A stretch of 32,000 nt of DNA, from the NCBI RefSeq assembly GCF_000092105.1, contig NC_014148.1, positions 90,001 to 122,000 on the forward strand. Direction: 5' to 3'. Numbering within the stretch: the stretch's first letter is position 1; each line of letters starts with the position of its first letter. Source of the DNA: Planctopirus limnophila DSM 3776. Its GTDB lineage: Bacteria > Planctomycetota > Planctomycetia > Planctomycetales > Planctomycetaceae. Below are positions 4,142 to 27,409 of this stretch, in pieces. The notes under the pieces were generated by a model. That model searched no databases. It saw only the letters and a program-made list of their open reading frames with translations, and was not told the origin of the DNA. Position numbers and translations under genes: made by a program.

Positions 4142-4972
4142 TCACGAAGGAATCAGGAGCAGATGCGCGATTGCTCCGGTGCCGGCCGCTGCGATCCCCA
4201 CGCGAAGATTGTCATTGCGTAACGATGGAAAAGATTCCACCAGACCTGCGGTCAGGCTGGCCAGAAAGCTCACACCCAGTGCCAGGCGAAAATCTATTCC
4301 GGGCCGGAATTCTCCCCAGAACATGATGGCACCAGCCAGAGTCCCCATCGCGATAAAGGCCCACAGGCCCACCCACGATTTGCAGCCATTCCACGGCAAT
4401 TTGCGCTCGCCGAACTTGAGCCCGAGGAGTGTGGCCGATCCATCCCCAAACGCCAGAATCGCCAGTGTCATCATGCCGATCTCTTCCCGACCAGGGAAGA
4501 GCCATAATGTCGCCAGAACCACCACGGCATACGCGAGGACGGCGTCGTAACCGTGATCTTCACCGGGACGGGCAATTCTCGAGAACCACCTCAGCATGAT
4601 CGTTGCCGTCGATAAAGTCAGACCAAGCACTACACTCCATACAATCCAACCCCACGGGTCGGTATGGGGAATCACCCACAATAGCAGGGGTAGCAGTCCC
4701 GGTGTCATGTGCCATAGCCGGCGGCGGAATTCCTGCGTACTCAGGCTGCGATGGCAGAAAATGGGGACGTACGGATCAACAGGGCTGGTGAGATCTGTCC
4801 TCGGAATGATGGCAAGTGTCTCATTGGAGAGACGGTCGGGAATGGCGACATGCCAGTGAATTTTACGCTGTGGACTTTCTTCATGCAGCGCGGGCTGGAA
4901 ATGAAAGGCCTTCCGCCGAGGTTGGGGGAGATCGATCGCTGGTGCCGGTTTTTCCGAGGTCTGGGTACCCAT
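4142..4972 (-). CDS. Membrane protein of the CTP-dependent polyprenol/diacylglycerol kinase and CdsA-like superfamily
   Basis: 276 aa with multiple TM helices. The motif FGDGSATLLGLKFGERKLPWNGCKSWVG resembles the GDxxAxxxG...K[ST]xEG signature of the CdsA/dolichol-kinase/phytol-kinase family. The N-terminal ~90 aa are non-membrane. Confidence 0.55.
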   Translation of the reverse strand: MGTQTSEKPAPAIDLPQPRRKAFHFQPALHEESPQRKIHWHVAIPDRLSNETLAIIPRTDLTSPVDPYVPIFCHRSLSTQEFRRRLWHMTPGLLPLLLWVIPHTDPWGWIVWSVVLGLTLSTATIMLRWFSRIARPGEDHGYDAVLAYAVVVLATLWLFPGREEIGMMTLAILAFGDGSATLLGLKFGERKLPWNGCKSWVGLWAFIAMGTLAGAIMFWGEFRPGIDFRLALGVSFLASLTAGLVESFPSLRNDNLRVGIAAAGTGAIAHLLLIPS

Positions 4973-5820
4973 GGGTTGCCTAACTGCGGATTCAAGTTCC
5001 GCATCAATGTCTAATGACTCACTGATGACCCGGCTCCATCCCGACTCGTCAAACTTCCATTTCTCGCGGCAAAATTGCGAACGGACTCATCTCCCGAGTT
5101 CCAACAACGTCTTATCGGCAATCACTCACAGTGAACTGTGATGCTTCTGCACCGATCACGATGCCTGACGTACTGCCCAGTCAGACCATCATCCGTCATT
5201 GCCGACAGAGAAGACGTTGTCGTACGACTCGAATCGTTCCAGAGATGTTCGAAATCACTGACCAGACCGAACCCATCTGAGAGCAAAAGCTGAGAGCGAA
5301 AAACATGCCAGCGACATGAGTTCTGCCATAACAATCCTGGGTTGAAAATGAAGAGGGCTAATGCTGAAGGCATGCATTGGGTCAACAACGCGGGGATGGC
5401 TGCAGGAAAAATGTTCGTGGCATGAGGCTTCGTGATGCTGTCTGAATTATCGCCCGGCTACCACCGGCGATCGTTCACCGGCCAGCCGACCGACAAACCA
5501 CTCGACGCTCGGCAGATACGGGGTTCTACCTGTGCTTCGGCCTCTAATGACTGCAGACCACAGCAGGCATTTCCATAGTGTATGTGTAAATAGTCAAATA
5601 CAATGACAACTTGAATCTATAAGTGTTTTTGAGTGCTGTAAGAACAGGGTGGCGTTCTGTGTTTTCCTGGTTTTCAGGGTTCGGAAGCACTTTGCGTGCA
5701 GAATCTACAGCGTGTGAATAGTCAAGCTCCTTGCCAAAGATCTTCGCAAGAGCATATACTGATATGTCTCGTCTCGGGCCTTTTTTCCGTTTTTCACTTC
5801 TTCTCAAGGAGGCCATCCTC

Positions 5821-6777
5821 ATGGCACAAGTTTCTGGCGGTTCCACCCGTCGCTCTGGATTTACTCTGATTGAACTCCTGGTGGTGATTGCGATCATCGC
5901 CATCCTGATTGCACTGCTGTTGCCGGCAGTTCAGCAGGCACGGGAAGCGGCCCGCCGCACCCAGTGCAAAAACAATCTCAAGCAGGTGGGGTTGGCGATG
6001 CACAACTACCACGACACCCACAACACGTTCCCACCGGGGAATATTCGTGGAGCCCTCAACGTTGGTCACGGACCGACCGCCTGGGTACACATCCTGCCTT
6101 ATGTTGATCAGGCTCCGCAGTACAACAGAGTCAACTTTTCGACTCCAGGCACATGGTGGGGCGGAACAGCTGGACCACCCGTTGGCGGCCCGCACGGCGC
6201 GACGTGGAATGGTTTTATTGTCAACGGATTCATCTGTCCTTCGTCACCACTTGTTTCGAGAAACTCCTACAATGGCGGCCAGAACGTCTGGCAACGTGCC
6301 AGCTACACGCTGATTGAAGGTGCTGTTGGTCTGAATGAAGTCGCAAACAACGGCAATGGAATTCGGTCAAACGGAGGTATGTTTACCCGCGACCGAAATT
6401 TCAACTTCCGCGACATGACCGATGGCAGCTCGAATATTGTGATGGTGGCTGAGCAGTCGAATTGGGGGCGAGATGCTGCCAATACCAACAATGTCGAGTA
6501 TCGATCCGATGGTGGTGACTCTGTCTGGATGGGGACAGATTATGGAAACCGTTGTTTTAACACGACCACTGTGCGGTATGCGATCAACACTCGCAGTAAT
6601 GCTCTGAGTGGTTCAGGATCACAGAGTTGCAATACACCGATCCAGTCGGCCCATACCGGCGGAGCCCATGTGCTCATCGGTGATGGGACCGTTAAGTTCC
6701 TGTCCGAAAATATGAACTTCGACACGCTCCGGTTCTTGGCAGATCGTGCTGATGGCAACGTAGTCGGTGAGTTCTAA
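5821..6777 (+). CDS. DUF1559-type prepilin-like protein (type II secretion/type IV pilin-like N-terminal cleavage-methylation domain)
   Basis: ATG at 5821 is preceded by AAGGAGG (about 5806-5812). N-terminus is [55 protein letters not shown], and the C-terminus has the [23 protein letters not shown]...VGEF motif typical of planctomycetal DUF1559 proteins. Confidence 0.9.
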
Positions 6778-6896
6778 TCGCCGCCGCAACGGCATGAACA
6801 TCGGGGGCTGCCAGTACTGCTGGTGGCCCCTCTTCTTTCCAACTTTGTTGATCTCATTCGATGAGCAAAGCTCCATTGACTCTTCCATTTCCGAGG

Positions 6897-7334
6897 ATGA
6901 ACAGCATGTTCCGCTCGATGTTTGTCGCCTTTGTCTGCAGTGCTTTGTTGATGAATGCCGGGTGTGGTTCCGCCGATCGCGGACCGCAGGCCCAACTGAC
7001 AGGCAAAGTCACTTTCAGTGGTCAGCCAGTTCCCGAAGGTGTTGTGCAGCTATCCAAAGTGGGTGGCGGGGCAGGGGCCTCGGCGAACATCTCGGCTGAC
7101 GGCAGCTTTTCCGTCGTGCTGGTCGATCCACTCCCGCCGGGTGAATATCTGGTGCTGATTGTGCCACCCACGATCGAAGACAACTCGAACCCCAACAGCC
7201 CCCCTGTGCAGAAGCCCAAAGAGATGGAACAGATTCCACCGCGCTACGGCAATGCCAAGACCAGCCCACTCAAGGTCACTCTCAAGGAAGGGGCGAACAC
7301 CGCAGATTTTGCCCTCGAACCTGAGAAGAAGTAA
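6897..7334 (+). CDS. Small lipoprotein with a carboxypeptidase-regulatory-like (beta-sandwich) domain, partner of the DUF1559 gene
   Basis: Signal/lipobox-like N-terminus MNSMFRSMFVAFVCSALLMNAGC, then LTGKVTFSGQPVPEGVVQL...SADGSFSV, the pattern of CarboxypepD_reg-like domains. The start could instead be the ATG at 6861. Confidence 0.7.
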   Translation: MNSMFRSMFVAFVCSALLMNAGCGSADRGPQAQLTGKVTFSGQPVPEGVVQLSKVGGGAGASANISADGSFSVVLVDPLPPGEYLVLIVPPTIEDNSNPNSPPVQKPKEMEQIPPRYGNAKTSPLKVTLKEGANTADFALEPEKK

Positions 7335-7672: not shown

Positions 7673-10600
7673 TCATTCAAACACAAACTCAATATCGGCG
7701 ACTTCATAGGCACTGAGTGCCACGCGGGATTCATTTCCCGTTGTTTTCAACCACGCGGCATGGGCTCCACCAAGTGTCAACTTGTGAGCCCCGGCCAGTG
7801 GTGCATACCAGACCATCGAAAAGGTCTTGGCCTGCCCCTCGGTCTCCATCAGCCGCACCCGGCACGACTTCTTCGATACGGTTGCCTTCGCTGCTCTATC
7901 GACGCTTTCAGTGTCTGAAGGATCGGCTGGAGCTTCGATGGGCCAGTCGGTCATCCCCGCTTCCCACGACAGAATGCTCACTTGTTTGGCTGGGCATTGG
8001 ACGAAGAAAGACGTCTCGCCTGTTGCGGGCCTGGTGACGTTTTCCAGCCGCACGAGAGGAACCATCGCCTCGTGCGCGAGCCGTGCGGGATGCGGATCAT
8101 CAATGGCAATGGTCCAGCGGAAGCGGCGGGAAGTTTCGCCCGAAACGACCATGAGGCCATCGAGCATGCGGGGGCCCGTTTTGCGAAAGTAAGGTCGGCC
8201 ATGCGGCAAAATCGTCGCCCGCAGGGAACCATCACAGATTTCGACAAACTCGGGAGCTTCAAACCGTTCGCTCCCCGCCACATGGACGCTTCCCAGCACC
8301 GAGCGGGATATGGCCGCCATCTCGCTGCCGAACGCAAAGCGGGCGCCGATGTAGTTGTTCCAGGGGTCGCCATCGAAGGCCGCCAGTTCGAGAAACTGCA
8401 GATCGATCTCCACCTTCAGTGAACCGGCACGAATCGTGACATCGAGTTTGTAGTAGCAGATGCGTTCCCCTTTGGCCTGATCAATGAGGTCTCCCAGTGA
8501 TCGAACCGTGAGGGAATGACTCGTCAGGGCGATAATCGATAACTCACCAGCGCGCATCTCCGAGTAAGCCGTCTTGATCACTTCGTCGTCAGGATCTGGC
8601 CCGAGGCGAATGGCCCGTTCACGCGGAAAGCGGCGGGCCAGCTGCAGGCTCAGTCGGTTCTCGCGCTGCTCATGCCGACGAATCCGGGCGATCCCTCCTG
8701 TTTGTGGGTGAAAAACGACCTCGAAGAGATCGTTTGAGAGGACACCTTCGGTAAATTTGACGACAGGCTTGCTCTTGCGTGCGGGACTTTTGCCATTTGG
8801 AGTGTTTTGGGCGAGCCAGAGATAGCCGCACGGTGGAATGGTGGGGAAGGTCCCATCTTCCATCTCTTCGGGAACTGGGCGTGCCCAGGGAAGCGGATTG
8901 ATCAATAAAGTTCCCGCAGGACTTGCGGCAGCCTCGTGATTTTGAATTTTTGACCCGAGCAGATTCGCGAACTGCTGGGCGGTCTGCTGCAGTGCGGTTT
9001 CTGCCGACCACTCCTCGTCGGCATTTGCGGCATGATCCGTGGTCGCACGATTGTCACTGGCACCAATCACGCGGAAGTGGGCGAGAAGTTCATCTTCCCA
9101 GCGTTGACCCCCACTTTTGATCCCCTGCACAGGCTGTTGGCGGTTTTCACTTGGAGAAAGCAGTGCACGCTGCACTTCGCAGAACTGCCAGGCTGCCTGT
9201 TGACCTTGCAGCTTCCAGGCACTCGCGACTCTCGAAATGGCGTTTTTCTCGCGAGCGGCGACTGCATAAACCAAGCTCGACGAAAGATATTCGCCCGCGT
9301 GGTATTGCCGCACATGGTCGGGGTATTCCACGCGCTCGAGAAATTCTTTGCAGGTGACAAACTTGCCCAGGACGGGGGCAAAAGTGGCAGCGCGCTGAAG
9401 ATCATGAAACCAGGGAGTCGCGACTTCGGGCCAGCGAGCAAAACCGAGAGCCGGGTTTCCATCGCTATCAAGAGCCTCTCCCAGTCGGGTTGCCAGCCTC
9501 AAAAAAGTCCCTGCGGATTGTGCCGGGAGTGGAATTCGTGAGAAAGCCGTTACCGCCTCGCCACTGGTACCTTCCCAACGGAAGCTGCTGAACTCTTCAT
9601 CCGGGTAGGTTCCTTCATCGAGCAGCAGATGTAACGCTCCCGCATAACCCGTCTGTGAGAGGAGACCGGGAAGTTGCGACACCAGCCCAAAGAGCCGCCG
9701 GGCAAACACCCGGGGAACTATTCCCAGTTGAGTTTTTGCGAGTAGATGGCCTTGTTGAAAGTTTCTGATCCACATCTGTGGCGAAATTAGCGGCGTACAA
9801 AGTTCGATAGCCTCTCCACCGAGAACATCGACAGCACCCTGGGCCAATAACTCCTTCAGAGTGGTGGTGGGAGCAGTGTTTGAGGGTGCTGTGAGTTCCT
9901 GAGGTGCCGCAAGTGGCAATTGTTCGTCAGCCAGCTTCAGCAGTGGAGAGGTTTCGAGTGAACCCGCCAGAAAGTTGACGGCTGGCTGGTTTCCTAAAGG
10001 TTCGTTGACCGGCCATGTGAAGCCGTTCAGAGCCGCTTTCAGCCGGGGCATATCGAGCTCGGAAGGTGCCAGGCACAAGTCGAAGAGCGAGATTTCGCCG
10101 GGGTAGAATCGCTCGCGTGTTTCGAGCAGGTTTTCGTAGGCAGTGGCCAGTTGCTGTCGGCATGGCAAGAACTCACCAGCAGCCAGCGAGCGGGCTGCTC
10201 CCACAGTTCGCTGTTGCAGAATGATTTCATCCAGACTGCTAAAGTGCCGCATCTGTCGGGAGAGGAGTTCCAACTGCAGAACTGTGGTTCCGAAGGCCAG
10301 AAAATCGTCGATCGAGGTTTTGGCTTCCGGCTGAAAGAACAGGCTCGGCTGGGCTGAATCGTCGGCATCGGATTCGAGCCACGCCTGGAGCTGCTGCAGA
10401 TTGTCTTCTCGCCGGGCGACTGTTTTCAGTAAGCCAGCCCCCGCTTGCTCCAATCGCTCATGCCAGTCGTAAGGAAACCAGTCTTCGGAGGGTTGAGGAA
10501 GAATCAGCAGCTGCCCGGGTGCGGGTTCGGGAGGAGCATCAGCACGGTACCACTGAGGAATTCGACCAGCTGTCGCCAATAGAGCCGGATGCCAGGCGAT

Positions 10601-10711
10601 GGCAAAAGCTTCCAGCAGGCTTCCTGCGGCCTCTTCTCCCAGATCCTGTGGAAAGTCTTCGAGGCTATGCGATGGAATCAGCACATAAACTTCAGAGCAG
10701 GTTTTCGTCAT
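7673..10711 (-). CDS. Large conserved hypothetical protein, possibly GH38 (alpha-mannosidase)-like in architecture
   Basis: Uninterrupted 1012-aa ORF. The N-terminus VYVLIPSHSLEDF resembles, but does not match, the GH38 hlvpHsHwDreW motif. The beta-rich C-terminal region (ARFAFGSEMAAISRSVLGSVHVAGSERFEAPEFVEICDG...RFRWTIAID) resembles the GH38 C-terminal domain pattern. The function call is weak. Confidence 0.7.
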   Translation of the reverse strand: MTKTCSEVYVLIPSHSLEDFPQDLGEEAAGSLLEAFAIAWHPALLATAGRIPQWYRADAPPEPAPGQLLILPQPSEDWFPYDWHERLEQAGAGLLKTVARREDNLQQLQAWLESDADDSAQPSLFFQPEAKTSIDDFLAFGTTVLQLELLSRQMRHFSSLDEIILQQRTVGAARSLAAGEFLPCRQQLATAYENLLETRERFYPGEISLFDLCLAPSELDMPRLKAALNGFTWPVNEPLGNQPAVNFLAGSLETSPLLKLADEQLPLAAPQELTAPSNTAPTTTLKELLAQGAVDVLGGEAIELCTPLISPQMWIRNFQQGHLLAKTQLGIVPRVFARRLFGLVSQLPGLLSQTGYAGALHLLLDEGTYPDEEFSSFRWEGTSGEAVTAFSRIPLPAQSAGTFLRLATRLGEALDSDGNPALGFARWPEVATPWFHDLQRAATFAPVLGKFVTCKEFLERVEYPDHVRQYHAGEYLSSSLVYAVAAREKNAISRVASAWKLQGQQAAWQFCEVQRALLSPSENRQQPVQGIKSGGQRWEDELLAHFRVIGASDNRATTDHAANADEEWSAETALQQTAQQFANLLGSKIQNHEAAASPAGTLLINPLPWARPVPEEMEDGTFPTIPPCGYLWLAQNTPNGKSPARKSKPVVKFTEGVLSNDLFEVVFHPQTGGIARIRRHEQRENRLSLQLARRFPRERAIRLGPDPDDEVIKTAYSEMRAGELSIIALTSHSLTVRSLGDLIDQAKGERICYYKLDVTIRAGSLKVEIDLQFLELAAFDGDPWNNYIGARFAFGSEMAAISRSVLGSVHVAGSERFEAPEFVEICDGSLRATILPHGRPYFRKTGPRMLDGLMVVSGETSRRFRWTIAIDDPHPARLAHEAMVPLVRLENVTRPATGETSFFVQCPAKQVSILSWEAGMTDWPIEAPADPSDTESVDRAAKATVSKKSCRVRLMETEGQAKTFSMVWYAPLAGAHKLTLGGAHAAWLKTTGNESRVALSAYEVADIEFVFE

Positions 10712-11693
10712 ACCAGGAGGTTTCTACAGGCTGTTTGACTGACCGAAGCGGATTGATCTTATAGATCAGGAACGTCTTCGGGCTTGATCGAGTCGAATCA
10801 CATCAGCCACATTGCTGGCGTTAGCGGGCGAGATCAAGCCACAAGGCGACAATTCACCAGACGTGTGAATCTACTGGCGGCAAAATCAAAACCTGCTGCT
10901 TGCATAACCGCTGAATTCGCTTGAACCTGCGTGTTCGCTCAAATCTTTGTCCCAGAAGAGTGGCCGTCCGGCGGAATTTCACTCGATACGATGTTCGCAT
11001 CTCCCGGTCGATATTCGAAAACTTTTGGAACCTGGAATGCGGAGAACGAGTCCAAATAACAGGGAATCCTGATGCGTTACGGGCAGGTTCATGCAGGATG
11101 CCACACACATCCTTTGAACGATAAAACGGAACATCAGTTCACTCGGGTTTGTGAAAAATGGCTGTTTCTATCACCTAACTCTCGGGACTGTCGCTACTTA
11201 TTGACTTTTCTCGGGTCGTGGCTGTAGTCTGAATACTTGATTGTTTATTCGTAATTTCCTTGCGTGTTTTTCAATTCTGACCCAGCGAATTCTCGCGAAC
11301 GCCTCTCTTTTGAGCATATTCTTGCAGAACGTGACAATTGCCCACAACTTTCCCGACGCATTTGAATTCGGTTTTTCGACTGGTATGCCGGCTCTGGTTA
11401 AGTCCCAGCCGGCGCCCAAAAACTGCATTTGATTCACGATGTTCAAAGCGATCTCTGTGGATGGAAAGTCGTGGCAAAATGAAAGTCACAGGAATGAAAT
11501 GACGGTTTCCTGAGAGAGTGGTAGTCTATCTGTCTGGTCAGAAACCCAGCGAAAAGCTGAAATTCAACGTAATGTAGTGGTGCGATAGAAAGAGATGATT
11601 GAGTCTGGTCGGTTGGGTGAACCAGTTGCCCGGGATATTCGGTTTGAAAAGATCGTGATGCAGGAAGGGTGACTTCCCGCTTCGCGGCGAGAC

Positions 11694-11719
11694 ATACGCA
11701 ATCTGTGAAATACGCAATC
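11694..11719 (+). promoter_or_regulatory. Direct repeat ATACGCAATC x2 (16-nt period), candidate regulator binding site upstream of the pilM-like operon
   Basis: Exact 10-mers at 11694-11703 and 11710-11719, 53-78 nt upstream of the ATG at 11772. Confidence 0.25.
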
Positions 11720-11771
11720 AGTCCACACGCTGAAACAACGCCTTGATGAACGGACAAGAGGGGTTTTCGTT

Positions 11772-14021
11772 ATGGCCGAATTGAAATCTGCCTGGGGGAT
11801 CGAGATTGGACAGGCTGGTCTCAAGGCCATCAAGCTGCGCTATGCCGAGGCCTCGAATCAGGTCTTTGCTGTCGCGTTTGATTATGTGCCGCATCCCAAA
11901 CTGTTGAGCCAGCCCGATGCAGATCCGGATGAACTGATTTCCGAAGCTCTCAAAACCTTTTTGAGCCGCAATCAGATTCAGGGAGATCTGCTGGGAATTT
12001 CGCTCCCGGGATCAAAATCGCTGCTGAAATTCATTCAATTGCCACCTGTCGAAGAATCGAAGGTGGCCGAGATTGTGCGCTATGAAGCCCGCCAGCAGAT
12101 TCCTTTCCCACTGGAAGATGTGATCTGGGATTTCCAGCCCATGGGATCATCTTCCGTCGAAGGTGGATTCATGCTGGATGCCGAAGTCGGCCTCTTCGCC
12201 ATGAAGCGGGACGACATTGAACACCAGATGTATCCGTTCAATCAGCGGAAGCTGGAACTGGAACTGGTGCAGATCGCACCTTTGGCCGTCTACAACTTTC
12301 TCTGGTTCGACCGGCTGGGACAGCGGAAAGACCCTGAGCAATCGCTGAATACACTGGCCGATGACCAGTATGTCGTTGCGCTTGATATGGGCTGCGACCA
12401 GACGACATTGATCGTCACTAATGGCAAGAAGATCTGGACGCGTAACGTGCCGATTGGTGGCAATCATTTTACGCGGGCATTGACGCGGGAAATGAAGCTC
12501 ACGTTTGCCAAGGCGGAACATCTCAAATGCAATGCCACAAAATCGCCTGATCCCAAGGCTGTCTTTCAGGCCATGCGGCCTGTCTTCAACGACTATGTGA
12601 ATGAGATCCAGCGATCGATTGGCTTCTTCTCGAGTGTCAATCGCTCGGCTCAAATCACGAAACTGGTCGGTCTGGGAAATGGCTTCAAACTGGCTGGTCT
12701 GGCCAAGTTTCTCCAGCAGAACCTCAACTACGAAGTCGAGAAGATCGACACGTTCCCGAGTTCCGTGGGCGACAGTGTCCTGACAGCGCCACTGTTCCAT
12801 GACAACATTCTGACGTTCACTGGCCCCTATGGACTGGCCCTCCAGCTTCTCGGGCAGACGCAGATTCATACTTCTCTGTTGCCACCCGAAATTGTGGTGG
12901 CCAGGAAGATTCGCCGCAAAAAGCCGTGGGCAGTCGCTACCGCCGCCGTGCTGCTCTTCGGACTGGCCACATCGGTGGCGGGTTATGGCAGCGTCGCCCA
13001 ATCGGTGAGTAAGAGCCGCTTTGGTAATGCTGAAACTCAGGCCGATGAAGTTGCCAAATACGCCTCCAAACTCGACAGCGATTACAAGGCTCAGGAAGGG
13101 CGTAATGCGGCCGCCAAAGAGCGCGGGGAGAAACTGGTCAAAGCCCTCGATTCCCGTGCCAACTGGCTGGAACTCTACAAGGCGATTGATGAGAGCCTGC
13201 CCCGCGATGAAAGTGCCGAACAACTCGATGAGACTCGCATCGAACTGATGAATCGCATTTCACTGAAGTCGGTGACATCCAAGAAATACGATGACCTGGC
13301 AACCTGGTACAACGATAACGCTCAATTAGCGAAGGTCTCACCTCAATACTTTTCAGCCTTCGATAAAGCTGAGGCACGCAAGACCGGGCCCACCGGCCCA
13401 GGCTATGTCTTCACTCTGCACGGGGTGCATTTCCACCATGCTCCGGAAGATCCTGTCAAAGGCCAGGGAACAGGGTATGTCGTGAATACTCTGCTCAAAA
13501 ATCTGCAGAGCTTTAAGGTGACTCGCAAAGACTCGGTCACTGGTCAGGTGATTGAGACACCTGTTGGTCAACTTGGGATCAGTTACGCGACCGTCAAAGC
13601 GGATCCATTTGTGCTCATCGATTACTACCCGATGGGTCGTCCCGATATGGCCAGTGCGAGCAGTGCGGCTCGCGGCCTGAGGCCTGGCTTCCAGCCTGGT
13701 TTCAATCCCGGCGGCTCAGGTGCTGAGTCGAGCTATTCCCCGCCGACACCTGGTGGAATTTCCAGTCCGGGAATTCCCAGTCCTGGCATTCCCGGGACAG
13801 GAACAGGCCGTGTGATCGATACCCAGTTGCCACCTGAGCAGGTCAATACGCCTCGTAAGATTCATATGACGAACTTTGTCGTGCAGTTTGTCTGGAAGCC
13901 GACTCCGGAAAAAGATCGACCTAAAGAAGATCCAGCCCTTCCGCCAGTCGATCCCGCTGCAGCACCGCAGGATGGCCAGGCAGCACCAGTTGCCACACCA
14001 CAGACACCACCCGCAGTTTAA
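11772..14021 (+). CDS. pilM: PilM-like actin-fold ATPase fused to a TM helix and a PilN-like periplasmic region (GspL-like topology)
   Basis: - SD-like AGAGGGG lies upstream.
- N-terminus AWGIEIGQAGLKAIKL and the VALDMGCDQTTLIVTNGKKIWTRNVPIGGNHFTRAL...AEHLK pattern match PilM phosphate-binding motifs.
- A TM helix (WAVATAAVLLFGLATSVAGYG) is followed by a coiled coil and WLELYKAIDESLP, as in PilN.
- The C-terminal region is Gly/Ser/Pro-rich. Confidence 0.85.
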   Translation: MAELKSAWGIEIGQAGLKAIKLRYAEASNQVFAVAFDYVPHPKLLSQPDADPDELISEALKTFLSRNQIQGDLLGISLPGSKSLLKFIQLPPVEESKVAEIVRYEARQQIPFPLEDVIWDFQPMGSSSVEGGFMLDAEVGLFAMKRDDIEHQMYPFNQRKLELELVQIAPLAVYNFLWFDRLGQRKDPEQSLNTLADDQYVVALDMGCDQTTLIVTNGKKIWTRNVPIGGNHFTRALTREMKLTFAKAEHLKCNATKSPDPKAVFQAMRPVFNDYVNEIQRSIGFFSSVNRSAQITKLVGLGNGFKLAGLAKFLQQNLNYEVEKIDTFPSSVGDSVLTAPLFHDNILTFTGPYGLALQLLGQTQIHTSLLPPEIVVARKIRRKKPWAVATAAVLLFGLATSVAGYGSVAQSVSKSRFGNAETQADEVAKYASKLDSDYKAQEGRNAAAKERGEKLVKALDSRANWLELYKAIDESLPRDESAEQLDETRIELMNRISLKSVTSKKYDDLATWYNDNAQLAKVSPQYFSAFDKAEARKTGPTGPGYVFTLHGVHFHHAPEDPVKGQGTGYVVNTLLKNLQSFKVTRKDSVTGQVIETPVGQLGISYATVKADPFVLIDYYPMGRPDMASASSAARGLRPGFQPGFNPGGSGAESSYSPPTPGGISSPGIPSPGIPGTGTGRVIDTQLPPEQVNTPRKIHMTNFVVQFVWKPTPEKDRPKEDPALPPVDPAAAPQDGQAAPVATPQTPPAV

Positions 14022-14137
14022 CTTGAACACAAATTGAAACTGGCTATCGAATAGAACGAATTGCCTGAACGCGGATTGATCGAACAAAGAACATCGCCAA
14101 GTCACTTCTTGTGACCATGAATAGTGCGGAGATCGTT

Positions 14138-15877
14138 ATGGAAAAACTGGAACCCATCATTCGCAATCGCTTCTGGATCCTCAGTGGACTGGTCGTGATT
14201 TTGAGTCTCGCTGGCTGGTGGATGGCTTCGTCTTCACTGGCGACGACGATTGATACACGGACAAAAGAAATCAAAGCTGCTGAGGACAAGATCCCCAAGG
14301 GAAATGTACCCAGTGCGGATTACTCGAACAAACTCTCGACAATCAACACGTATCAGGAGCGGCAGGTCGAACTTGCGCGGACGATGCTCTGGGATCAACA
14401 GCGGGCCAAAATGGCATGGCCCAAAAATATTCAGCCCTATGCTGATGAAGCGGGTTATCGCGGCGAGTTCGCACCTCTCGCCCGGGATATCTATCGCACC
14501 AGTTCACCATCAGATATTGCCTCCGTCTGGCAAAAGGTTCGCCCTTTCAATGCTCAGACTGGTGAAGGCGTCGTCGTCTTTCCACTGCAGGCGATGCCGG
14601 TGAAATACTGGCGTGATCTCCCTCCAACCTCCAAGGAAATGTGGGATGCTCAGGAAGACCTCTGGCTCCTCGATTCTCTCCTGAGCACGATTACTCAACT
14701 CAATGGGGGTGAAACCACTAACAATCGGCTGGATGCTTCCATTCATCAGATTCTGAAACTCCAGTTGATGGGTGGTAAGCGTGGTGAGCCCATCGATGCC
14801 CCTGCCGCTGGTGGCGATCCATCAGGAGGTGGTGGAGAAGGTTATTCCCCACCTATGGCAAGTGGTGGCGATGCTTTTTCCAGTGGCGGTGGTGGGCGTG
14901 GTGGCAAGATTGCCCCACCAGCCAGTGCCGATTTCCCCATTAAGGAAGAGTTTGGCTCAGCCGGTGGCGAAGGGGGCCTGAATGGCAGCTCATCTTCGGC
15001 TGATTCATTTGCTGCCGATCCCTCCGCGCTGGGTGATGGGGCTCCGCAAATGGCAGCCGCTCGACGTTACATTGATGACGACGAAGGTGCACCATTTCGC
15101 ACGCGAGGATTTTATCTCTCCGTGCTGATGGATCACCGCCGCATTCCCGATTTCATCGCGGAGTTGACAAGTAACGAACGCTCGGTCTGGCCGGTGGAAG
15201 TCGTTCGTGTGCAGATGATTCGCAAGAATGAGGATGGCAACTTTGCCCGCGGCGGGGCCTCAGGCATGCCGAATTATGGCGCAGAAGCCGGGAGTTTTGG
15301 CGGCTCTTCGCCTACGTTTGGAACAGCATCGGAAGGGTTTACCGGCGGAGGAGCGAACAGTGTTCCTCCGGAATTCCTGACACAATCCCAGGGCATCAAT
15401 CCACAGGATGCCAACAATCCGATGCTGATGAACAAGATTCAGGCGGCGAATGCAGCTCTGCAAACGGCACTGACTGATCCGAATATCGCCGAAGTTGTGA
15501 TTGCCGGTTATTTCACGCTTTACAATCCGCCCCAGACAGCGCCAGAGGCAGCAGCAGCGACATCGGCAGATTCCACAGCAGCACCAGCGACACCAGCAGC
15601 ACCAGCAACTTCTGAAACACCAGCAGGTACCGAACCGACCACGCCGGAAATGACGAACCCAGCACCGGCGGAAAATCCCCCGGTGGATGGTGCCACACCG
15701 GCTGCACCCGCAGCACCTGTTAATCCCGCGCCGACAGATCCAGCAGCGACTCCGCCTGCGAACACTCCCCCGGCAGCACCAACAGCTCCAGCAACGACAC
15801 CAGCAGCACCAGCTGGTGAACCGGCTGCGCCAACTGGTGAAGCAGCGCCGGCTACTCCACCAGCCGGTGGAACTTAA
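14138..15877 (+). CDS. Bitopic membrane protein in the PilO/GspM position, with a large Gly-rich insert and a ~110-aa Pro/Ala/Thr tail
   Basis: GGAG at 14128-14131 sits 6 nt before the ATG at 14138 (alternatives: GTG 14111, ATG 14117). One TM (FWILSGLVVILSLAGWWMA), then a coiled coil. Ferredoxin-like segments FYLSVLMDHRRIPDFIAELTSNERSVWPVEVVRVQM and AEVVIAGYFTLYN are interrupted by low complexity. Confidence 0.6.
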   Translation: MEKLEPIIRNRFWILSGLVVILSLAGWWMASSSLATTIDTRTKEIKAAEDKIPKGNVPSADYSNKLSTINTYQERQVELARTMLWDQQRAKMAWPKNIQPYADEAGYRGEFAPLARDIYRTSSPSDIASVWQKVRPFNAQTGEGVVVFPLQAMPVKYWRDLPPTSKEMWDAQEDLWLLDSLLSTITQLNGGETTNNRLDASIHQILKLQLMGGKRGEPIDAPAAGGDPSGGGGEGYSPPMASGGDAFSSGGGGRGGKIAPPASADFPIKEEFGSAGGEGGLNGSSSSADSFAADPSALGDGAPQMAAARRYIDDDEGAPFRTRGFYLSVLMDHRRIPDFIAELTSNERSVWPVEVVRVQMIRKNEDGNFARGGASGMPNYGAEAGSFGGSSPTFGTASEGFTGGGANSVPPEFLTQSQGINPQDANNPMLMNKIQAANAALQTALTDPNIAEVVIAGYFTLYNPPQTAPEAAAATSADSTAAPATPAAPATSETPAGTEPTTPEMTNPAPAENPPVDGATPAAPAAPVNPAPTDPAATPPANTPPAAPTAPATTPAAPAGEPAAPTGEAAPATPPAGGT

Positions 15878-15981
15878 GCCTGTCCCTCAGTTCGTTTTTG
15901 AACTTTGATAGAACATCGCCAGCAACTATCGAGCAGACAACTTTTCAGCGAACATTGTTTTGAAGATCAAGGGGATATCCC

Positions 15982-18105
15982 ATGGCAGGTATCAAAGGTT
16001 TGAATTTCAAATCGCTGCTGGTCGATCATGGCGAGAAAATCGTACTGGCCGGTATTGGCCTGCTGGTGCTGGGTGTGTGGGGAACCACCTCCTGGAGCCG
16101 GACAGAGAAATCGCCGGATGAGATCATCAAGAAGGCCACCAATTCGAAAACGAATATCGATGCGGGTGTGTGGCCTGTGGAGAAAGCCAACGAGTTTGCG
16201 ATTGTGGCTTACCAGGATCGTGCCTCTCAGCTGTTGAAGCCGATGGAGTCGGTCGCCGCTTACGAGTTTTCGACACCTCTCTACCATCCGCTTTATCGCA
16301 AGCAGGAGCAGATTAAGGAACCAGAATGGTTGCCTGTGGCCGACCTGATTGCCGATGCCGGGACAGCGATCATCGCGATTAACAAAGGCCTCGATGTCAC
16401 TCTCGCGGAAACAGAAACCGGGGATTTGACCAAGGCCAGTGAAGAAGAAGTCAACACGGAATTCGCGATTCGTTCTGGCGTCGGCGGAACAGCAGCCGGC
16501 GGCCCGGGTGCATCGGGCGCGGAAACTCCTGTCGGCAGCTACAGTCCGCCACCCGTTTCCGAATCGACCTTTGGCAGTTCGTCTCCATATGGTTTGGATG
16601 GCAGCGTCGGCGGCACAGTTTCGAGCGTCGAAGCTCGCGGCGTGCGCTATGTCGCTGTGCGCGGCATTGTTCCTTTGCAGCAGCAGGTGGCCAAGCTTCA
16701 GAAAGCACTGAACCTGCAGAGCCTCACGGAAGCCGAGCAGTATCTTGAACTCCTCGACTTCAAGCTGGAACGTCAGGAGGCCGTCGCTGGCGACAACCCG
16801 TGGGTCGGGAAGTGGGAAGCGGTCGATATGGTGGCCGACTCACAGATTCTGGCGGAATCGCCCAACTTCGATATTGATCCCTTCGATGCCCGCATCTCAG
16901 ATGCGACGATCACCGCCCCACTCCCGTTGAGGCTGATGGGGTACTGGGGCGAACATGCGACACATCCGAAAGTCCGAAATTTCACTTTAAGCCCGGAAGA
17001 GCGTGCCAAGCAGGAGCGATTCCTCGATAAGGTTGTCGAAACTGCGACAAAAGAGCGGGCCCTGCTGGAACAATCCCAGAAGCCACAAAGGCGCGGGTTT
17101 GCCGTCGTGCAGCGGGATTTGCGAGCCTTGCAAGGGGCGATTATGTCGTCGAGCAGTTCTGACCAGATTCTGGGAACAATGTCGACGATGATGGCAGTGC
17201 CTGGCAGCCCTGCGATGACATCTCAACAGCTCAAAAAGATGCTCGACACGGCGGGTGGCCGGTTGCTGCTGTTCCGATATCTGGACCTGCAGGTGAAGCC
17301 GGGCCGCGCCTATCGCTACCGCGTGAAGCTGCTCTTTACGAATCCGAACTACAATCTGCCAATTGAACAGATCGTGGATCCTTCGGTCGCTGCGGGAGCC
17401 GAGCGGGAATCACCCTGGAGCACGATTTCGAATCCAGCAGTGGTTCCTGGGGATGTCAAATACTTCCTGGCTGGAAGTGAACGTGATCCCGTCCGCGACG
17501 TGACCCGCTCGATTCGTAAAGCCGTGGCCAATATGAGTGTCTACCAGTGGGATGCCAAACTCGGATCACTCCTGAATTCCACGCTCGATCTCACCTCGGT
17601 CGGCCAGGTCATCAAAGAGACCAAGAAGGTGAAGAGGGCCGATCTGGGGAATGGCACGTATGAAGATGCCGACATCGTGATCGGCACCACAGACCTGCTG
17701 CTGGACGTCGCCGCGGATGTCGAAGTCAACGTGACCTTACAGTCCAAGCTGCCTGTCCACATGGCTGAACTGGGACTGACTCCCGTCAGTGGCAAACTCA
17801 ATTTTGGCTTGCTGCCTGAAGCTGTCGTTGTCAATGAAGCGGGTCAAATGGAATTTATTGATTCCAAGACCAACCAGAAACAGGAAGACGAGCTGAAGCG
17901 CAGGTATGAGGGCGAGAAAAAAGAGTATGAGAAATTCAAGCCGCCCGAAGTAGCTGACCCACTTCTGGGCCCGGGTGGTGGCGAGGAGAGTAGTTATGTT
18001 CCGCCAGGTATGGGAGATCCGACGGCGCGAAAAGTGAGTTCCAAGAAGATTCGCACGAATCGCAAGGGCCAGCCGGGCATGGGATCGAGCCCACCCGCCC
18101 CATGA
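15982..18105 (+). CDS. Bitopic membrane protein of unknown function, third gene of the pilM-like operon
   Basis: AAGGGGA lies about 7 nt before the ATG. One N-terminal TM (IVLAGIGLLVLGVWGTTSW) is followed by a large extracytoplasmic part with Gly/Ser-rich inserts. The gene is 707 aa, on the same strand, and 104 nt after the previous gene. Confidence 0.7.
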   Translation: MAGIKGLNFKSLLVDHGEKIVLAGIGLLVLGVWGTTSWSRTEKSPDEIIKKATNSKTNIDAGVWPVEKANEFAIVAYQDRASQLLKPMESVAAYEFSTPLYHPLYRKQEQIKEPEWLPVADLIADAGTAIIAINKGLDVTLAETETGDLTKASEEEVNTEFAIRSGVGGTAAGGPGASGAETPVGSYSPPPVSESTFGSSSPYGLDGSVGGTVSSVEARGVRYVAVRGIVPLQQQVAKLQKALNLQSLTEAEQYLELLDFKLERQEAVAGDNPWVGKWEAVDMVADSQILAESPNFDIDPFDARISDATITAPLPLRLMGYWGEHATHPKVRNFTLSPEERAKQERFLDKVVETATKERALLEQSQKPQRRGFAVVQRDLRALQGAIMSSSSSDQILGTMSTMMAVPGSPAMTSQQLKKMLDTAGGRLLLFRYLDLQVKPGRAYRYRVKLLFTNPNYNLPIEQIVDPSVAAGAERESPWSTISNPAVVPGDVKYFLAGSERDPVRDVTRSIRKAVANMSVYQWDAKLGSLLNSTLDLTSVGQVIKETKKVKRADLGNGTYEDADIVIGTTDLLLDVAADVEVNVTLQSKLPVHMAELGLTPVSGKLNFGLLPEAVVVNEAGQMEFIDSKTNQKQEDELKRRYEGEKKEYEKFKPPEVADPLLGPGGGEESSYVPPGMGDPTARKVSSKKIRTNRKGQPGMGSSPPAP

Positions 18106-18157
18106 ACACACACAGTGTGACTCGCGATTATAAATCCTAGATGAATAAAGACCTTAT

Positions 18158-18200
18158 GGCCCGGCTCATGGTGTAGATCCCATGAGCTGGGCCAATTTTC
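18158..18200 (+). terminator. Intrinsic terminator of the pilM-like operon
   Basis: 14-bp stem GGCCCGGCTCATGG / CCATGAGCTGGGCC (one G-U pair), 8-nt loop, then AATTTTCT. It lies 53 nt after the stop at 18105. Confidence 0.65.
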
Positions 18201-21582: not shown

Positions 21583-21845
21583 AAACGCGACGAAGCTTCG
21601 AATCGCTCATTGATGAAGTGACGCTGCTGCTGTTTTTGTCGCTTAAGCCTGTTCCGAAGCAGGCAAATCGTGTCGAGAAGGGCTTGCCCTCTTTGTTTCG
21701 CCTGGCAATTTGATTACCCTTCAGCAGTGCGGTGAATGCCACTGGTTTCTTCACTCGGCGAGTTGTCGGCATAGGGCCTTCATCTCAACAAGTCGAATGC
21801 TTCACCAGTTCGGGCAGATTGAGACTTTTCTTTCCGAGAAATGGA

Positions 21846-23648
21846 ATGCAACGCTTACTGTCTCTCCTTCAGTACTCGCTGCTTTGGGGCATCCTGGTCT
21901 CTGGCAGCATGTGCCTGTTTCAGGGCGAAGCTCTGGCACAAGGTGGCGCTGTCACCACAGCCGCTCCCTCGACTTATCCACCTGTCCCAGGAGGCCTTTT
22001 CTACCGCGGTAATAACCCCACCCAGCCGGGTTCTGCGGGATATTACTTCAGCCTCCCGATGCTCATCTTCTCACTGTCGCTGGTCACGCTGATGGTCTGG
22101 ACCTTGGGCTGGATTGCTGATGATGCGCGCAGTCTGAAGGTCCGCCCCGAGTTCTGGAATACGCTGGGTTTACTCGTCGCCGCCGCCGCTGTGCTGATTT
22201 TGTATCTCGGGCCGACACCGCTGGTGGCCGTCCTCGGATTTCTGATCTGCTATGCCGGTTTACTGGGAGGCTATGCTCCCGAACGTAACCGCAAGGTTCC
22301 TGAGAACTCGAAGATCCTTACGCCCTATCATCTCCAGACCATCGCCATACGCGGCCTGGCACGCCTCGGGATTGAAGTGGGTGGCAAGAAAGCGGTCCAT
22401 GCCGCCATGGGGCCACCCATCACGTTTATCGGGAAGTCGAATAAAGGGGCTGGCGAGGTCGATCGATCGAGGCAAGTCGAAAGCAGCCGAGGCTACACTT
22501 CCGCTCGGGAACTTGTCTACGACGCCATTCTTCGCCGGGCGACCGATATTCACCTCGAGCCCAAAGACGACGAATTCGCCGTCCGGCTGCGCGTCGACGG
22601 AGTGATGTTCCCCGCCGAACCATTCGATCGACCCACCGGCGAATCGGTCGTGAATATTTTCAAAGTGCTCGGAGCGATGGATATCACCGAACGCCGCAAG
22701 CCACAGGACGGCAGCTTCCGTGCCGAGACCGAAGGTCGCGAAATTGACTTTCGCGTCGCCACGCAGGGTACACAGTTCGGCGAGAAGATGTCGCTGCGTA
22801 TTCTCGATGGTGGTTCAACAGTCCGCCGCCTGGCAGATCTAGGCATGCGCAAGCAGTTGATCGAGCAGATCGTAGGAATTGTCCAACAACCCCACGGATT
22901 GTTCCTCTCCTGCGGGCCAACTGGTGCCGGTAAATCGACCACACTTTATGCGGCTCTCCAGGAAATCAACCGCTACGAAAACAACATCATCACTGTCGAA
23001 GATCCCGTCGAATACAAGATGGATGGTGTGACCCAGATCGAAATCAATCAAAAAGCGGGGCAGACCTTTGCGGCCTCTTTGCGCAGTATTCTTCGCCAGG
23101 ATCCCGATGTGGTGATGCTGGGCGAAATTCGTGATGGAGAAACCGCCAAGATCGCCTGTCAGGCAGCCAACACCGGACACATGGTCTTCTCGACAGTTCA
23201 CGCCAACGACACGATTACAGCCCTCTCGCGTCTGATCGATCTGGGTGTCGAACCGTTCCTCCTCTCCGATTCGCTCTCAGCCATTCTCGGCCAGCGGCTC
23301 TGTCGCAAATTGTGCGACGACTGCAAAGAGTCGTACAAGCCCTCCGCCGATCAACTGGAAAAGATCGGTCTCCCCGCCGAGAAAGCCGGTGTGTTCTACC
23401 GCCCGCCCAAGGATGGTACCGATGCCTGCCCGACTTGCAGTGGCATGGGATACATGGGACGAATCGGCGTTTTTGAATTGCTGGTGATCAACGATCGCAT
23501 CCGAGACCTGCTGCGGGAATCGCCGAACATGACATCTGTCCGGGCCGAAGCCCGTAAACAGGGCATGCTTTACATGCGAGAAGAAGGCCTGCGACTGGTT
23601 CTCAAAGGAACAACAAGCCTCGAAGAACTTCTCCGCGTGGTGAAGTAA
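21846..23648 (+). CDS. GspE/PilB-family secretion ATPase with an N-terminal polytopic membrane domain
   Basis: The core carries ATDIHLEP, Walker A GPTGAGKST, DPDVVMLGEIRD, His box GHMVFSTVHAND and tetra-Cys CRKLCDDC...CPTCSGMG. The N-terminal ~190 aa hold a signal-like helix plus three TM helices. The start was chosen at MQRLLSLL (ATG 21846); the ORF is open from 21732. Confidence 0.85.
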   Translation: MQRLLSLLQYSLLWGILVSGSMCLFQGEALAQGGAVTTAAPSTYPPVPGGLFYRGNNPTQPGSAGYYFSLPMLIFSLSLVTLMVWTLGWIADDARSLKVRPEFWNTLGLLVAAAAVLILYLGPTPLVAVLGFLICYAGLLGGYAPERNRKVPENSKILTPYHLQTIAIRGLARLGIEVGGKKAVHAAMGPPITFIGKSNKGAGEVDRSRQVESSRGYTSARELVYDAILRRATDIHLEPKDDEFAVRLRVDGVMFPAEPFDRPTGESVVNIFKVLGAMDITERRKPQDGSFRAETEGREIDFRVATQGTQFGEKMSLRILDGGSTVRRLADLGMRKQLIEQIVGIVQQPHGLFLSCGPTGAGKSTTLYAALQEINRYENNIITVEDPVEYKMDGVTQIEINQKAGQTFAASLRSILRQDPDVVMLGEIRDGETAKIACQAANTGHMVFSTVHANDTITALSRLIDLGVEPFLLSDSLSAILGQRLCRKLCDDCKESYKPSADQLEKIGLPAEKAGVFYRPPKDGTDACPTCSGMGYMGRIGVFELLVINDRIRDLLRESPNMTSVRAEARKQGMLYMREEGLRLVLKGTTSLEELLRVVK

Positions 23649-24552: not shown

Positions 24553-24746
24553 TCTTCGCAGCCCATAACGCACTGTCGTTTCCTGAGAAACAGATCTCAA
24601 CTTGAAATGGCGAGTTGAAACCCGCTCAAATACATGTGCATGAAGGAGCTCGCTTGGCGATTAACAGCCTGCATCTCGACGGAGCACGCTGCTGATCAAA
24701 AGTGGCATTTTGCATGAGGGACGGTGCGTCCTCAGGAACCCGACGG

Positions 24747-25634
24747 ATGGCTGAAACTCAGGACACTCCCGCCCCGCCAGATCAGCCTGACCCGCCACAT
24801 CGGCCCAAAAGTCTCTGGCAGATCATGCGGGGAGAACCTGCATCAGATTCTCTTTCTCACCCTGTCGAAACCCAGGCAATAGATCCCGACGCTTTACAGC
24901 CTCAGGCAACGGAAACTGCTCTCGATACTGAGAAGATGATTCCCACAGCCCGTGGTGCTCCGTCCCTCCGTGGCCTCTGGCATGTCATGCGGGAGCAGAA
25001 GCAGCCCCAGCGGCTTCCCGCCGTCCCTGCATTTCGATCACTCCAGCGCAAGCCTGCCCCAGCCATCAACTCAGATTCTGCTCCTTTGGCAGACGGTCAA
25101 CAAGCGGCTCCCCCGGCAACGGCAGAAAAAGTCCGTCAAGCCCGCTGGTATACCGCAGGCATGCAGTTTCGTGCGTCCCGCCCGAGAGTCGCCAGGCGAT
25201 ATCCACATGTCGTTCGTCGAGGAACATCAGTCACCTCTCCCGCTGATGATATGCAGACCGGTTTGGACGTCATTGCGCCAATACATACCACAGAGTTGGA
25301 AGCTGAACTCCTCTACGAGCGACTGACTCCCGTAACCTCTGCCTGGACGTGGATCGGCCGGGGAGCCACATCGACTTTGGCCGCATTTCTGTTCTCACCA
25401 CTGGCGCAGTGGGAGAGCTTATGGTGGGAGCTCCCGGCGACAATCTTCGGGTTCGGCGGCCTGTTCTGTGCCTGCCTCGCCATGACCGAAGCCGAAAGGC
25501 GGTATCTTTACAGTGCCGGGCCTCATGGAGACCACGCCGCCAGGCAATCCACAGACATTCAACTGGCGACAGCCGCCCTCCTGATACTAGCCGCCACCAC
25601 AAGCATCTTCATCGGGCCATTCGTTTGGGGTTAA
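24747..25634 (+). CDS. Hypothetical protein with a Pro-rich N-terminal half and C-terminal TM helices
   Basis: The ORF is open from the GTG at 24702. The ATG at 24747 follows AGGAA at ~9-nt spacing. C-terminal hydrophobic segments are STLAAFLFSPLA, ATIFGFGGLFCACLAM and ATAALLILAATTSIFIGPFVW. I recognise no family. Confidence 0.45.
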   Translation: MAETQDTPAPPDQPDPPHRPKSLWQIMRGEPASDSLSHPVETQAIDPDALQPQATETALDTEKMIPTARGAPSLRGLWHVMREQKQPQRLPAVPAFRSLQRKPAPAINSDSAPLADGQQAAPPATAEKVRQARWYTAGMQFRASRPRVARRYPHVVRRGTSVTSPADDMQTGLDVIAPIHTTELEAELLYERLTPVTSAWTWIGRGATSTLAAFLFSPLAQWESLWWELPATIFGFGGLFCACLAMTEAERRYLYSAGPHGDHAARQSTDIQLATAALLILAATTSIFIGPFVWG

Positions 25635-26145: not shown

Positions 26146-26371
26146 TAGAAAATGTTCTATATTGCAATCAGTCATATAGATATTGTTCGGAGCGAGTTCA
26201 AAGTCTGAACTCTTGACGTTGAGGCGGATATCGCCACGAAGACACAAAACTCGATTGACTGAATAAGGACGAGTTGGCTGATGTAAAAAGTGAGGCCACG
26301 CTGTCTGACGGAAAGAAGTTGGGGCACTCACATTCCGAGACAGGCGTGGCCGGAAGCACTAGAACTAGTCT

Positions 26372-27409
<1,038 letters not shown>

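Follow-up and report, generated by a model that had tools for sequence, protein, structure and literature searches.

We analyzed a stretch of 32,000 nucleotides from Planctopirus limnophila DSM 3776 (contig NC_014148.1, positions 90,001 to 122,000; hereafter the window, with positions counted from its first letter) and found that three consecutive genes on its forward strand form a real operon that is strongly conserved in planctomycetes. Gene 1 encodes a bona fide PilM domain that is fused through a linker and a transmembrane helix to a periplasmic domain, genes 2 and 3 encode large bitopic proteins, and the nearest known relative of the operon is the Amuc_1099-1101 (MUL2) cluster of Akkermansia. 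Because gene 1 exceeds the PilM cut-offs and is akin to Amuc_1101, because the gene 2 product has a related predicted fold, because the gene order is kept among relatives, and because prepilin-type and ATPase genes are present in the window, we favor, with a probability of roughly 0.6, the interpretation that the trio is the inner-membrane assembly or alignment subcomplex of a type-IV-filament machine (pilus or pseudopilus) of the Planctomycetes-Verrucomicrobia-Chlamydiae (PVC) type.

Operon layout and the PilM fusion encoded by gene 1

The operon comprises gene 1 (11772..14021, an open reading frame (ORF) from ATG, 749 aa), gene 2 (14138..15877, from ATG, 579 aa) and gene 3 (15982..18105, an ORF from ATG, 707 aa), all on the + strand. 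Gene 2 has an alternative GTG start at 14111 that would give 588 aa, and its ATG at 14138 agrees with the family consensus start MDKLxPILKQKFWIL. The gap between genes 1 and 2 is 89 or 116 nt, for the GTG and the ATG start respectively, and that between genes 2 and 3 is 104 nt. A terminator-like hairpin (18157..18194, +), identified by its stem and its folding energy, is located 51 nt past the gene 3 stop and is followed by icd. Its stem of 15 bp includes 10 G-C pairs, its fold of -32.7 kcal/mol (z = -5.3) was equaled by 0 of 200 shuffles, and it has only a short U-tract (AUUUUCU). The region contained 8 terminator-like sites, against 8.0 expected from shuffles, and only the hairpin at 18157-18194 therefore stands out. 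These data bear out a preliminary description of this DNA, which had proposed three co-directional genes separated by gaps of ~100 nt and closed by one strong terminator. The intergenic region between gene 1 and the divergent GH38N-like gene upstream (10712..11771, 1,060 bp) presumably holds the promoter and leader; we detected in it no convincing or pilin-like ORF, no Rfam family and, on the + strand, no sigma-70-like site. This spacer is unusually long here, as it measures ~400-700 bp in related loci. Each of the three proteins has exactly one strong hydrophobic 19-mer, and their low-complexity segments rich in Gly, Ser, Pro, Ala and Thr coincide with stretches in which the AlphaFold predicted local distance difference test (pLDDT) score is below 50.

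The cytoplasmic portion of the gene 1 product is an actin-like PilM domain (aa 9-358, 11796..12845, +). PilM_2 (PF11104) matched it over model positions 1-338 of 340 (E 1.7e-30; 106.6 bits, cut-off 27), TIGR01175 (pilM) gave 151.6 bits against a cut-off of 133, and the PDB matches of gene 1 were all PilM, the best being 3jc8_M (E 3e-23). Its sequence is highly conserved among 22 homologues. Full-length homologues of gene 1 are 630-683 aa long, and their database annotation is already PilM. The best specific NCBIfam match of gene 1 was Amuc_1101_fam (NF045709, 'PilM-like pilus complex protein') with 196.2 bits (E 1.1e-57; aa 55-479, model positions 53-464 of 608), and this match extends beyond the PilM domain, through the linker and the transmembrane helix, to aa 479. 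As an equivalog would have to reach 650 bits, a cut-off that 196 bits misses by far, gene 1 is not an Amuc_1101 equivalog; authentic Amuc_1101 scores 753.6 bits on its own model.

Alternatively, gene 1 may encode an FtsA/PilM-like actin-family protein acting in envelope growth or budding in an FtsZ-less planctomycete, with genes 2 and 3 encoding its membrane partners. The FtsA domain PF14450 of Pfam matched gene 1 (E 5e-8) and each of the 22 homologues, conservation across the gene 1 family is very high, and Amuc_1101 was itself first annotated as FtsA (PMC5332112). However, TIGR01174 (ftsA) gave only 24.3 bits against a cut-off of 175.85, whereas TIGR01175 scored above its own. Together with the uniformly PilM-type PDB matches and the Amuc_1100/PilO-like fold of the partner encoded by gene 2, this makes a role of the FtsA kind quite unlikely.

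Directly after the PilM domain comes a juxtamembrane linker, IHTSLLPPEIVVARKIRRKKP (aa 365-385, 12864..12926, +). It follows the pattern T-x-LLP-x-EI…R-x-x-R-x-KKP, and its residues T367, L369, L370, P371, E373, I374, R378, R381, K383, K384 and P385 are invariant in the 22 homologues. The transmembrane helix that comes next (aa 386-404, 12927..12983, +) is the sole Kyte-Doolittle 19-mer of gene 1 with a value of at least 1.5 (1.77). PilN proteins consist of a short conserved cytoplasmic N-terminal motif, one transmembrane helix, a coiled coil and a ferredoxin-like domain, and the gene 1 linker resembles the first of these elements. In E. coli HofN, a member of the Pfam PilN family, the N-terminus MNPPINFLPWRQQRR is likewise followed by a transmembrane helix, and we liken its stretch INFLPWRQQRR plus helix to the linker plus helix of gene 1, a resemblance at the level of the motif. 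BLASTP pairs the gene 1 linker with LNIDLEPTAVAKKRANQKKMP of Amuc_1101, again as a motif-level resemblance only. A literature search for an 'INLLP' motif in PilN found no paper, and the PilN motif used here is taken from the HofN sequence.

The periplasmic part (aa 405-749, 12984..14018, +) occurs solely inside PilM-annotated proteins. It consists, in order, of a coiled-coil-like stretch, the segment WLELYKAIDESLP with invariant W465 and P477, alternating conserved blocks of strand and helix, a Gly/Ser/Pro insert that falls in a low-complexity region rich in Gly, Ser, Pro, Ala and Thr (aa 627-688), the last strand FVVQFVWKP, which is conserved, and a Pro/Ala tail. The preliminary description had called this region PilN-like. 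Its topology, linker motif and helix/strand pattern agree with that assignment, and on these grounds the domain may be PilN-like in nature and fold; profile, PDB and hhalign comparisons did not bring significance. PF05137 (PilN) had zero matches in gene 1 and the 22 homologues at E<=10, neither the profile of the periplasmic part nor the linker/transmembrane/coiled-coil segment matched any PDB entry, and hhalign of the C-terminus against E. coli HofN, HofO and HofP was non-significant. In the HofN comparison the WLELY…LP helix was set on the start of the PilN domain, which is the topologically right place, at a probability of 0.8%.

PilM is typically a cytoplasmic protein on its own, ~350 aa long, which binds the N-terminus of PilN, the product of a separate gene, whereas gene 1 encodes 749 aa with its own transmembrane helix and a periplasmic part of 345 aa. 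The pilMNOPQ operon ends in a secretin, whereas here no profile for PilN, PilO, PilP or a secretin matched the downstream genes and icd lies past the terminator. The chain thus has the GspL topology with a PilM-type cytoplasmic domain, as the preliminary description had proposed and as PF11104, TIGR01175 and the helix at aa 386-404 confirm. GspL/PulL is an accepted fusion of PilM and PilN (PMC10191384). GspL models were absent from the Pfam and NCBIfam matches of gene 1.

The two large partners encoded by genes 2 and 3

The gene 2 product, for which 91 homologues were found, has its transmembrane helix at aa 12-30 (ATG numbering) and low-complexity segments at aa 212-308, 367-417 and 455-579. 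Its AlphaFold model (mean pLDDT 71.9; 225 residues reach 90 or more) begins with a long transmembrane/coiled-coil helix at the N-terminus, continues with a helical bundle and has a beta-alpha-beta core that is broken by three disordered Gly/Ser-rich loops and followed by a Pro/Ala/Thr tail of ~110 residues. When this model was compared with the PDB using Foldseek, the ten best matches were all chains of Amuc_1100 (best E 1.1e-2, prob 0.99), with a template-modelling score on the target of 0.48-0.61, and weak matches to PilO came next (3jc8_O, 2rjz and 5uvr; E 1.9-5.2). The Amuc_1100 sequence that we used was verified against 6LAD/6KNY (100% identity, residues 31-317). Neither the protein, nor a profile of 41 homologues, nor any homologue alone had a Pfam, NCBIfam or PDB sequence match, and PilO (PF04350) and the Amuc_1100 family model (NF038287) had zero profile matches in gene 2 and 41 family members. 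Since the profile comparison with Amuc_1100 was not significant, we describe the gene 2 product as Amuc_1100/PilO-like in its predicted fold only.

The gene 3 product (87 homologues found) has its transmembrane helix at aa 20-38 and a low-complexity segment at aa 157-215. In the AlphaFold model (pLDDT 72.6), the transmembrane helix and further helices are followed by two very long strands around a disordered Gly/Ser insert (aa 137-213). After these come a helical region and then a beta-sandwich-rich region (aa 428-627), and the chain closes with a terminal helix and a basic Gly/Pro tail. An invariant LLLFRY-D…PG-AYRYRVKL-NPN block is located in the beta-sandwich-rich region. Foldseek returned weak matches of the FnIII type only (E>=0.04, prob<=0.38). 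The single sequence, an alignment of 41 members and the members themselves had no Pfam, NCBIfam or PDB sequence match; among the 41 members there were zero profile matches to PilP (PF04351) or GspC, the PDB profile search was empty, and no secretin domain (PF00263) was found in gene 3 or its family members. One of the 41 members matched Amuc_1100_fam at E 0.078, which we treated as noise. The beta-sandwich of PilP/GspC binds the secretin N0.

Gene 3 belongs to a large uncharacterised family. Searching its profile against 1.84 billion cluster representatives gave 4472, 2452 and 960 representatives at E<=1e-3, 1e-10 and 1e-30, respectively. Nearly all of the best 150 matches were full-length (~620-840 aa), and two were shorter (518 and 538 aa) and had no N-terminal profile part.

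The preliminary description was correct in presenting the products of genes 2 and 3 as oversized bitopic proteins interrupted by disordered inserts, as each has a single transmembrane helix and segments with pLDDT below 50. It had also placed them where PilO and PilP would be. Gene 2 gave weak PilO fold matches; the models and sequence searches gave gene 3 no likeness, in fold or in sequence, that would mark it as a PilP equivalent. Outcomes that would have spoken against the module as first described were that genes 2 and 3 prove to be ordinary PilO, PilP or PilQ homologues, or that the three genes are not syntenic in related genomes. Pfam and NCBIfam profiles detected no such homologue in 41 members of each family and the trio is syntenic in 47 of 50 related genomes, and thus neither outcome was found.

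Conservation, relatives and probable function

To place the operon among its relatives we collected at least 552 relatives of gene 1 among the first 600 pattern matches, with one genome per species, and counted synteny in the best 80 loci of these, restricted to those with enough flanking sequence. Most of the 80 loci bear Planctomycetaceae-type names, and their gene 1 is 47-64% identical to ours, apart from the Planctopirus hydrillae locus (L003; 98%), with which the whole region is collinear. In P. ephydatiae, Spb1_08470 shares 95% identity with gene 2 and Spb1_08480 shares 99% with gene 3. Genes 2 and 3 were found downstream of gene 1, on the same strand and in the same order, in 47 of the 50 loci whose downstream flank was 4.5 kb or longer. 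The three-gene unit is also intact in the more distant locus L085, where gene 1 is only ~42% identical and the partner genes encode 539 and 620 aa.

This conservation bears on the possibility that genes 2 and 3 encode unrelated envelope proteins that are merely co-transcribed with pilM, the module being coincidental. Such a view could draw on the lack of any sequence-level tie of genes 2 and 3 to a pilus family and of significant profile similarity among the three proteins: when the periplasmic parts of all three gene products and of Amuc_1100 were compared by hhalign, each with every other, no pair was significant, and hence PilN/PilO-type paralogy among the periplasmic parts could not be shown. 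However, order and strand are kept in nearly all of the species-level loci, despite the divergence of gene 1, and in more distant lineages as well, and the predicted fold of the gene 2 product is similar to that of Amuc_1100, whose gene is the next one after Amuc_1101 in Akkermansia. We consider a coincidental arrangement very improbable.

Split homologues of genes 1, 2 or 3 were observed in three loci (L001 12230-15902, L002 10001-16325 and L085 7842-9949), with the splits in L001 and L002 giving 88+449, 205+399 and 200+577 aa. In every split the downstream frame stays open beyond the point where the upstream ORF stops, which makes frameshift errors in metagenome assemblies likelier than gene fission. 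We rejected the idea that genes 2 and 3 arose by fusion of smaller ancestors, since they are intact in L085 and the splits look like frameshifts.

In Akkermansia muciniphila (L088) the corresponding locus encodes, in order, the pilin-like Amuc_1102, Amuc_1101 (612 aa; PilM, a transmembrane helix at aa 376-394 and a periplasmic domain), Amuc_1100 (317 aa, bitopic), Amuc_1099 (337 aa, bitopic) and Amuc_1098, which has tetratricopeptide repeats (TPR) and matches Secretin at E 7e-30. NCBIfam holds curated models for all five (Amuc_1102_rel, Amuc_1101_fam, Amuc_1100_fam, Amuc_1099_fam and Amuc_1098_fam). The cluster has been tied to pili-like structures (PMC5332112), the MUL2 locus to mucin acquisition (PMC13174399; bioRxiv 10.64898/2025.12.30.696933), and the fold of Amuc_1100 has been called PilO/PilN-like (bioRxiv 10.64898/2025.12.30.696933). 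Both clusters encode a fusion of PilM, basic linker, transmembrane helix and periplasmic domain followed by two bitopic proteins, and the suggestion that the scaffold is specific to this lineage was therefore too strong. Gene 1 and Amuc_1101 itself are 24% identical over 342 aa (E 4e-29), the linker included, and the Amuc_1100 crystal structures are the best PDB match for the gene 2 model. Amuc_1100 has a Pro/Ala-rich low-complexity insert directly before its last strand, the position at which genes 1 and 2 also have inserts. In Amuc_1100 (L088 7911-8864) this insert reads …MMPPPIANPAAAKPAAAQPATGAAS…EQVFVQVSLNLVHF. Disordered inserts before the last strand may be a shared PVC trait. Genes 2 and 3 have roughly twice the length of their counterparts in Akkermansia, carry Gly/Ser inserts and Pro/Ala/Thr tails, and have no significant match to the Amuc_1100 and Amuc_1099 models; a profile comparison of gene 3 with Amuc_1099 was not significant either. 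The operon has no Amuc_1102-type pilin-like gene upstream and no Amuc_1098-type TPR-secretin gene downstream, and neither is present in the window. Unlike the Akkermansia cluster with its flanks, it has a GH38N/GH57-like gene as its conserved neighbor.

With PilMNOP of type IVa pili the operon shares a PilM-type actin-like domain, successive bitopic partners encoded in one operon, the weak PilO fold matches of gene 2 and a gene 1 linker that resembles the PilM-binding N-terminus of PilN. It differs in that its PilM is fused to the membrane partner, the partners are larger by a factor of 3-4, PilQ does not follow, no member has a PilN, PilO or PilP profile match, and gene 3 has no PilP-like fold match. 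With the T2SS (type II secretion system) it shares the one-chain topology of GspL in gene 1 and bitopic partners such as GspM and GspC, and the window contains a GspE-scoring ATPase and GspG-like N_methyl/DUF1559 genes. It differs from the T2SS in having no match to GspL, GspM or GspC models, a gene 1 cytoplasmic domain that is PilM-type by score, and no adjacent gspD or gspF.

If the trio is indeed the inner-membrane base of a filament machine, the PilM domain of gene 1 would dock a hexameric PilB/GspE-type ATPase and the platform. This domain would be covalently and permanently tethered to its membrane partner, as in GspL of the T2SS, the join being formed by the PilN-like linker, the single transmembrane helix and a periplasmic coiled coil plus alpha/beta domain. 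The partner of the gene 1 periplasmic part would be the Amuc_1100/PilO-like gene 2 product. Gene 3, anchored by its transmembrane helix and carrying predicted beta-sandwich domains, could reach towards the peptidoglycan and an outer-membrane component, and may thus do the connecting job that PilP/GspC does elsewhere. The Gly/Ser loops and Pro/Ala/Thr tails might serve to span the wide planctomycetal periplasm, and the filament served could be a pilus or a DUF1559-type pseudopilus.

Several observations weigh against this interpretation. Literature searches turned up no experimental data on any planctomycetal member. Profile scans detected no secretin, PilC/GspF or prepilin peptidase within the window, and a PilB/GspE-type ATPase was present anywhere in the locus in just 1 of 42 cases, that of Planctopirus. 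The PilN-like assignment of the gene 1 periplasmic part lacks statistical support; the gene 2 profile was not significantly similar to Amuc_1100 (hhalign probability 0.6%), and the Foldseek E-values for gene 2 are modest (1e-2). Gene 3 showed no detectable similarity to PilP, GspC or Amuc_1099 in the profile comparison, and the 50 Foldseek matches listed include no PilP, GspC, secretin or GldM.

The preliminary description had stressed that machine parts are missing. This is true of the immediate operon, but the window as a whole has two N_methyl/DUF1559 genes and a PilB/GspE ATPase. The absences can also be read in favor of a filament-free envelope scaffold or tether, in which the cytoplasmic membrane would be fastened to the wall or the outer membrane by a PilM-derived cytoplasmic domain together with two long bitopic proteins, for example at the 'press-stud' contacts of planctomycetal crateriform structures. 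The trio has no platform, peptidase, secretin or pilin gene conserved alongside it, the ATPase accompanies it in a single locus out of 42, and DUF1559 genes adjoin the trio only in Planctopirus. Moreover, the proteins are oversized and rich in linkers, gene 3 is unlike known pilus components, and crateriform structures join the outer and cytoplasmic membranes with no genes assigned to them (PMC5394234). On the other hand, the PilM domain is strongly conserved and scores above PilM cut-offs, and the nearest relatives, those of the Amuc_1101 cluster, adjoin a secretin and a pilin-like gene. Crateriform structures also bear pili-like fibres (PMC5394234), so that a tether would overlap with a filament base rather than exclude it. 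A tether that serves no filament seems to us an unlikely alternative to the filament-machine interpretation.

Planctomycetes take up large polysaccharides via fibres that emanate from crateriform structures, at which the outer membrane is clamped to the cytoplasmic membrane (PMC5394234). This raises the tentative idea, which we hold to be rather doubtful, that the trio, possibly joined by the GH38N/GH57-like cytoplasmic protein, forms the base, in the inner membrane, of the crateriform-structure/fibre apparatus by which polysaccharides are captured and imported, as the planctomycetal counterpart of the Akkermansia MUL2 machine. If true, there would be a PVC-wide macromolecule-uptake system derived from pili, and gene 3 would represent a new type of periplasm-spanning connector. 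The operon would then tie the PilM-fusion cluster of Akkermansia, a member of a sister phylum, to planctomycete fibre uptake, by sequence in the case of gene 1 and by fold in the case of gene 2. Should its function prove ordinary, the gain would be confined to a better annotation, namely a PilM-N-type fusion, an Amuc_1100/PilO-like partner and an uncharacterised connector. The PilM annotation of gene 1 homologues was already known, as was the fusion architecture from GspL and Amuc_1101. What is new is that genes 2 and 3, so far unannotated, define two large families that have no Pfam or NCBIfam model, that of gene 3 comprising ~1,000-2,500 clusters at 50% identity; our literature searches found no publication on this operon in planctomycetes. 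As the operon is conserved, appears to be single-copy and is genetically tractable, it provides concrete knock-out targets in Planctopirus limnophila, a species with established genetic tools (PMC5394234, PMC11958385).

Other genes in the window

Divergent from gene 1 lies the GH38N/GH57-like gene (7673..10711, -), which encodes 1012 aa without transmembrane helix or signal peptide. Its product has a weak GH38N match (E 8.9e-5) and no PDB sequence match, and the motif VVLIPSHSLEDFPT is conserved at its N-terminus. A divergent gene of this type was located upstream of gene 1 in 32 of the 49 loci with enough upstream flank, and it is present in distant loci as well, where the matches were weak GH38N (L002), GH57 plus GH38N (L085) and Polysacc_deac_1 (L084). 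The homologues are ~1,000 aa long and likewise have no transmembrane helix or signal peptide. The protein may be a functional partner of the operon.

The PilB/GspE-type ATPase gene (21732-23648, ATG at 21846, +) lies between a nadD-like gene and cvpA. Its T2SSE domain spans aa 260-635 (E 1e-113), and it scores best on the GspE model (453.8 bits). We rejected this ATPase as a partner encoded with the operon, as only 1 of 42 loci has it as a neighbor. ATPases of the PilB/GspE family are normally soluble, and membrane anchoring is unusual among them. The N-terminal extension of ~220 aa contains at least two strongly hydrophobic 19-mers, at aa 110-128 (Kyte-Doolittle 1.99) and aa 154-172 (2.26), and the protein thus looks membrane-anchored.

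Two prepilin-type N_methyl/DUF1559 genes (5731-6777, +, and 26372-27511, -) were identified by profile matches and are GspG-like. Each belongs to a gene pair that is present in two copies (5731-7334, +, and 25693-27511, -), in which the N_methyl plus DUF1559 gene is followed by one for a small CarboxypepD_reg/Ig-like protein with a lipoprotein-like N-terminus. A protein stretch of 34 letters is contained in both DUF1559 proteins.

Two ORFs, at 24702-25634 (+, 310 aa) and 4142-4972 (-, 276 aa), had no Pfam or NCBIfam match; the hydrophobic C-terminal halves of their translations suggest that they encode membrane proteins. A tRNA-Val(GAC) gene (28033-28106, +) adjoins a gene for a copper-type P1B ATPase with YHS and HMBD metal-binding domains (28327-30774, -), an ordinary pair that is unrelated to the operon.

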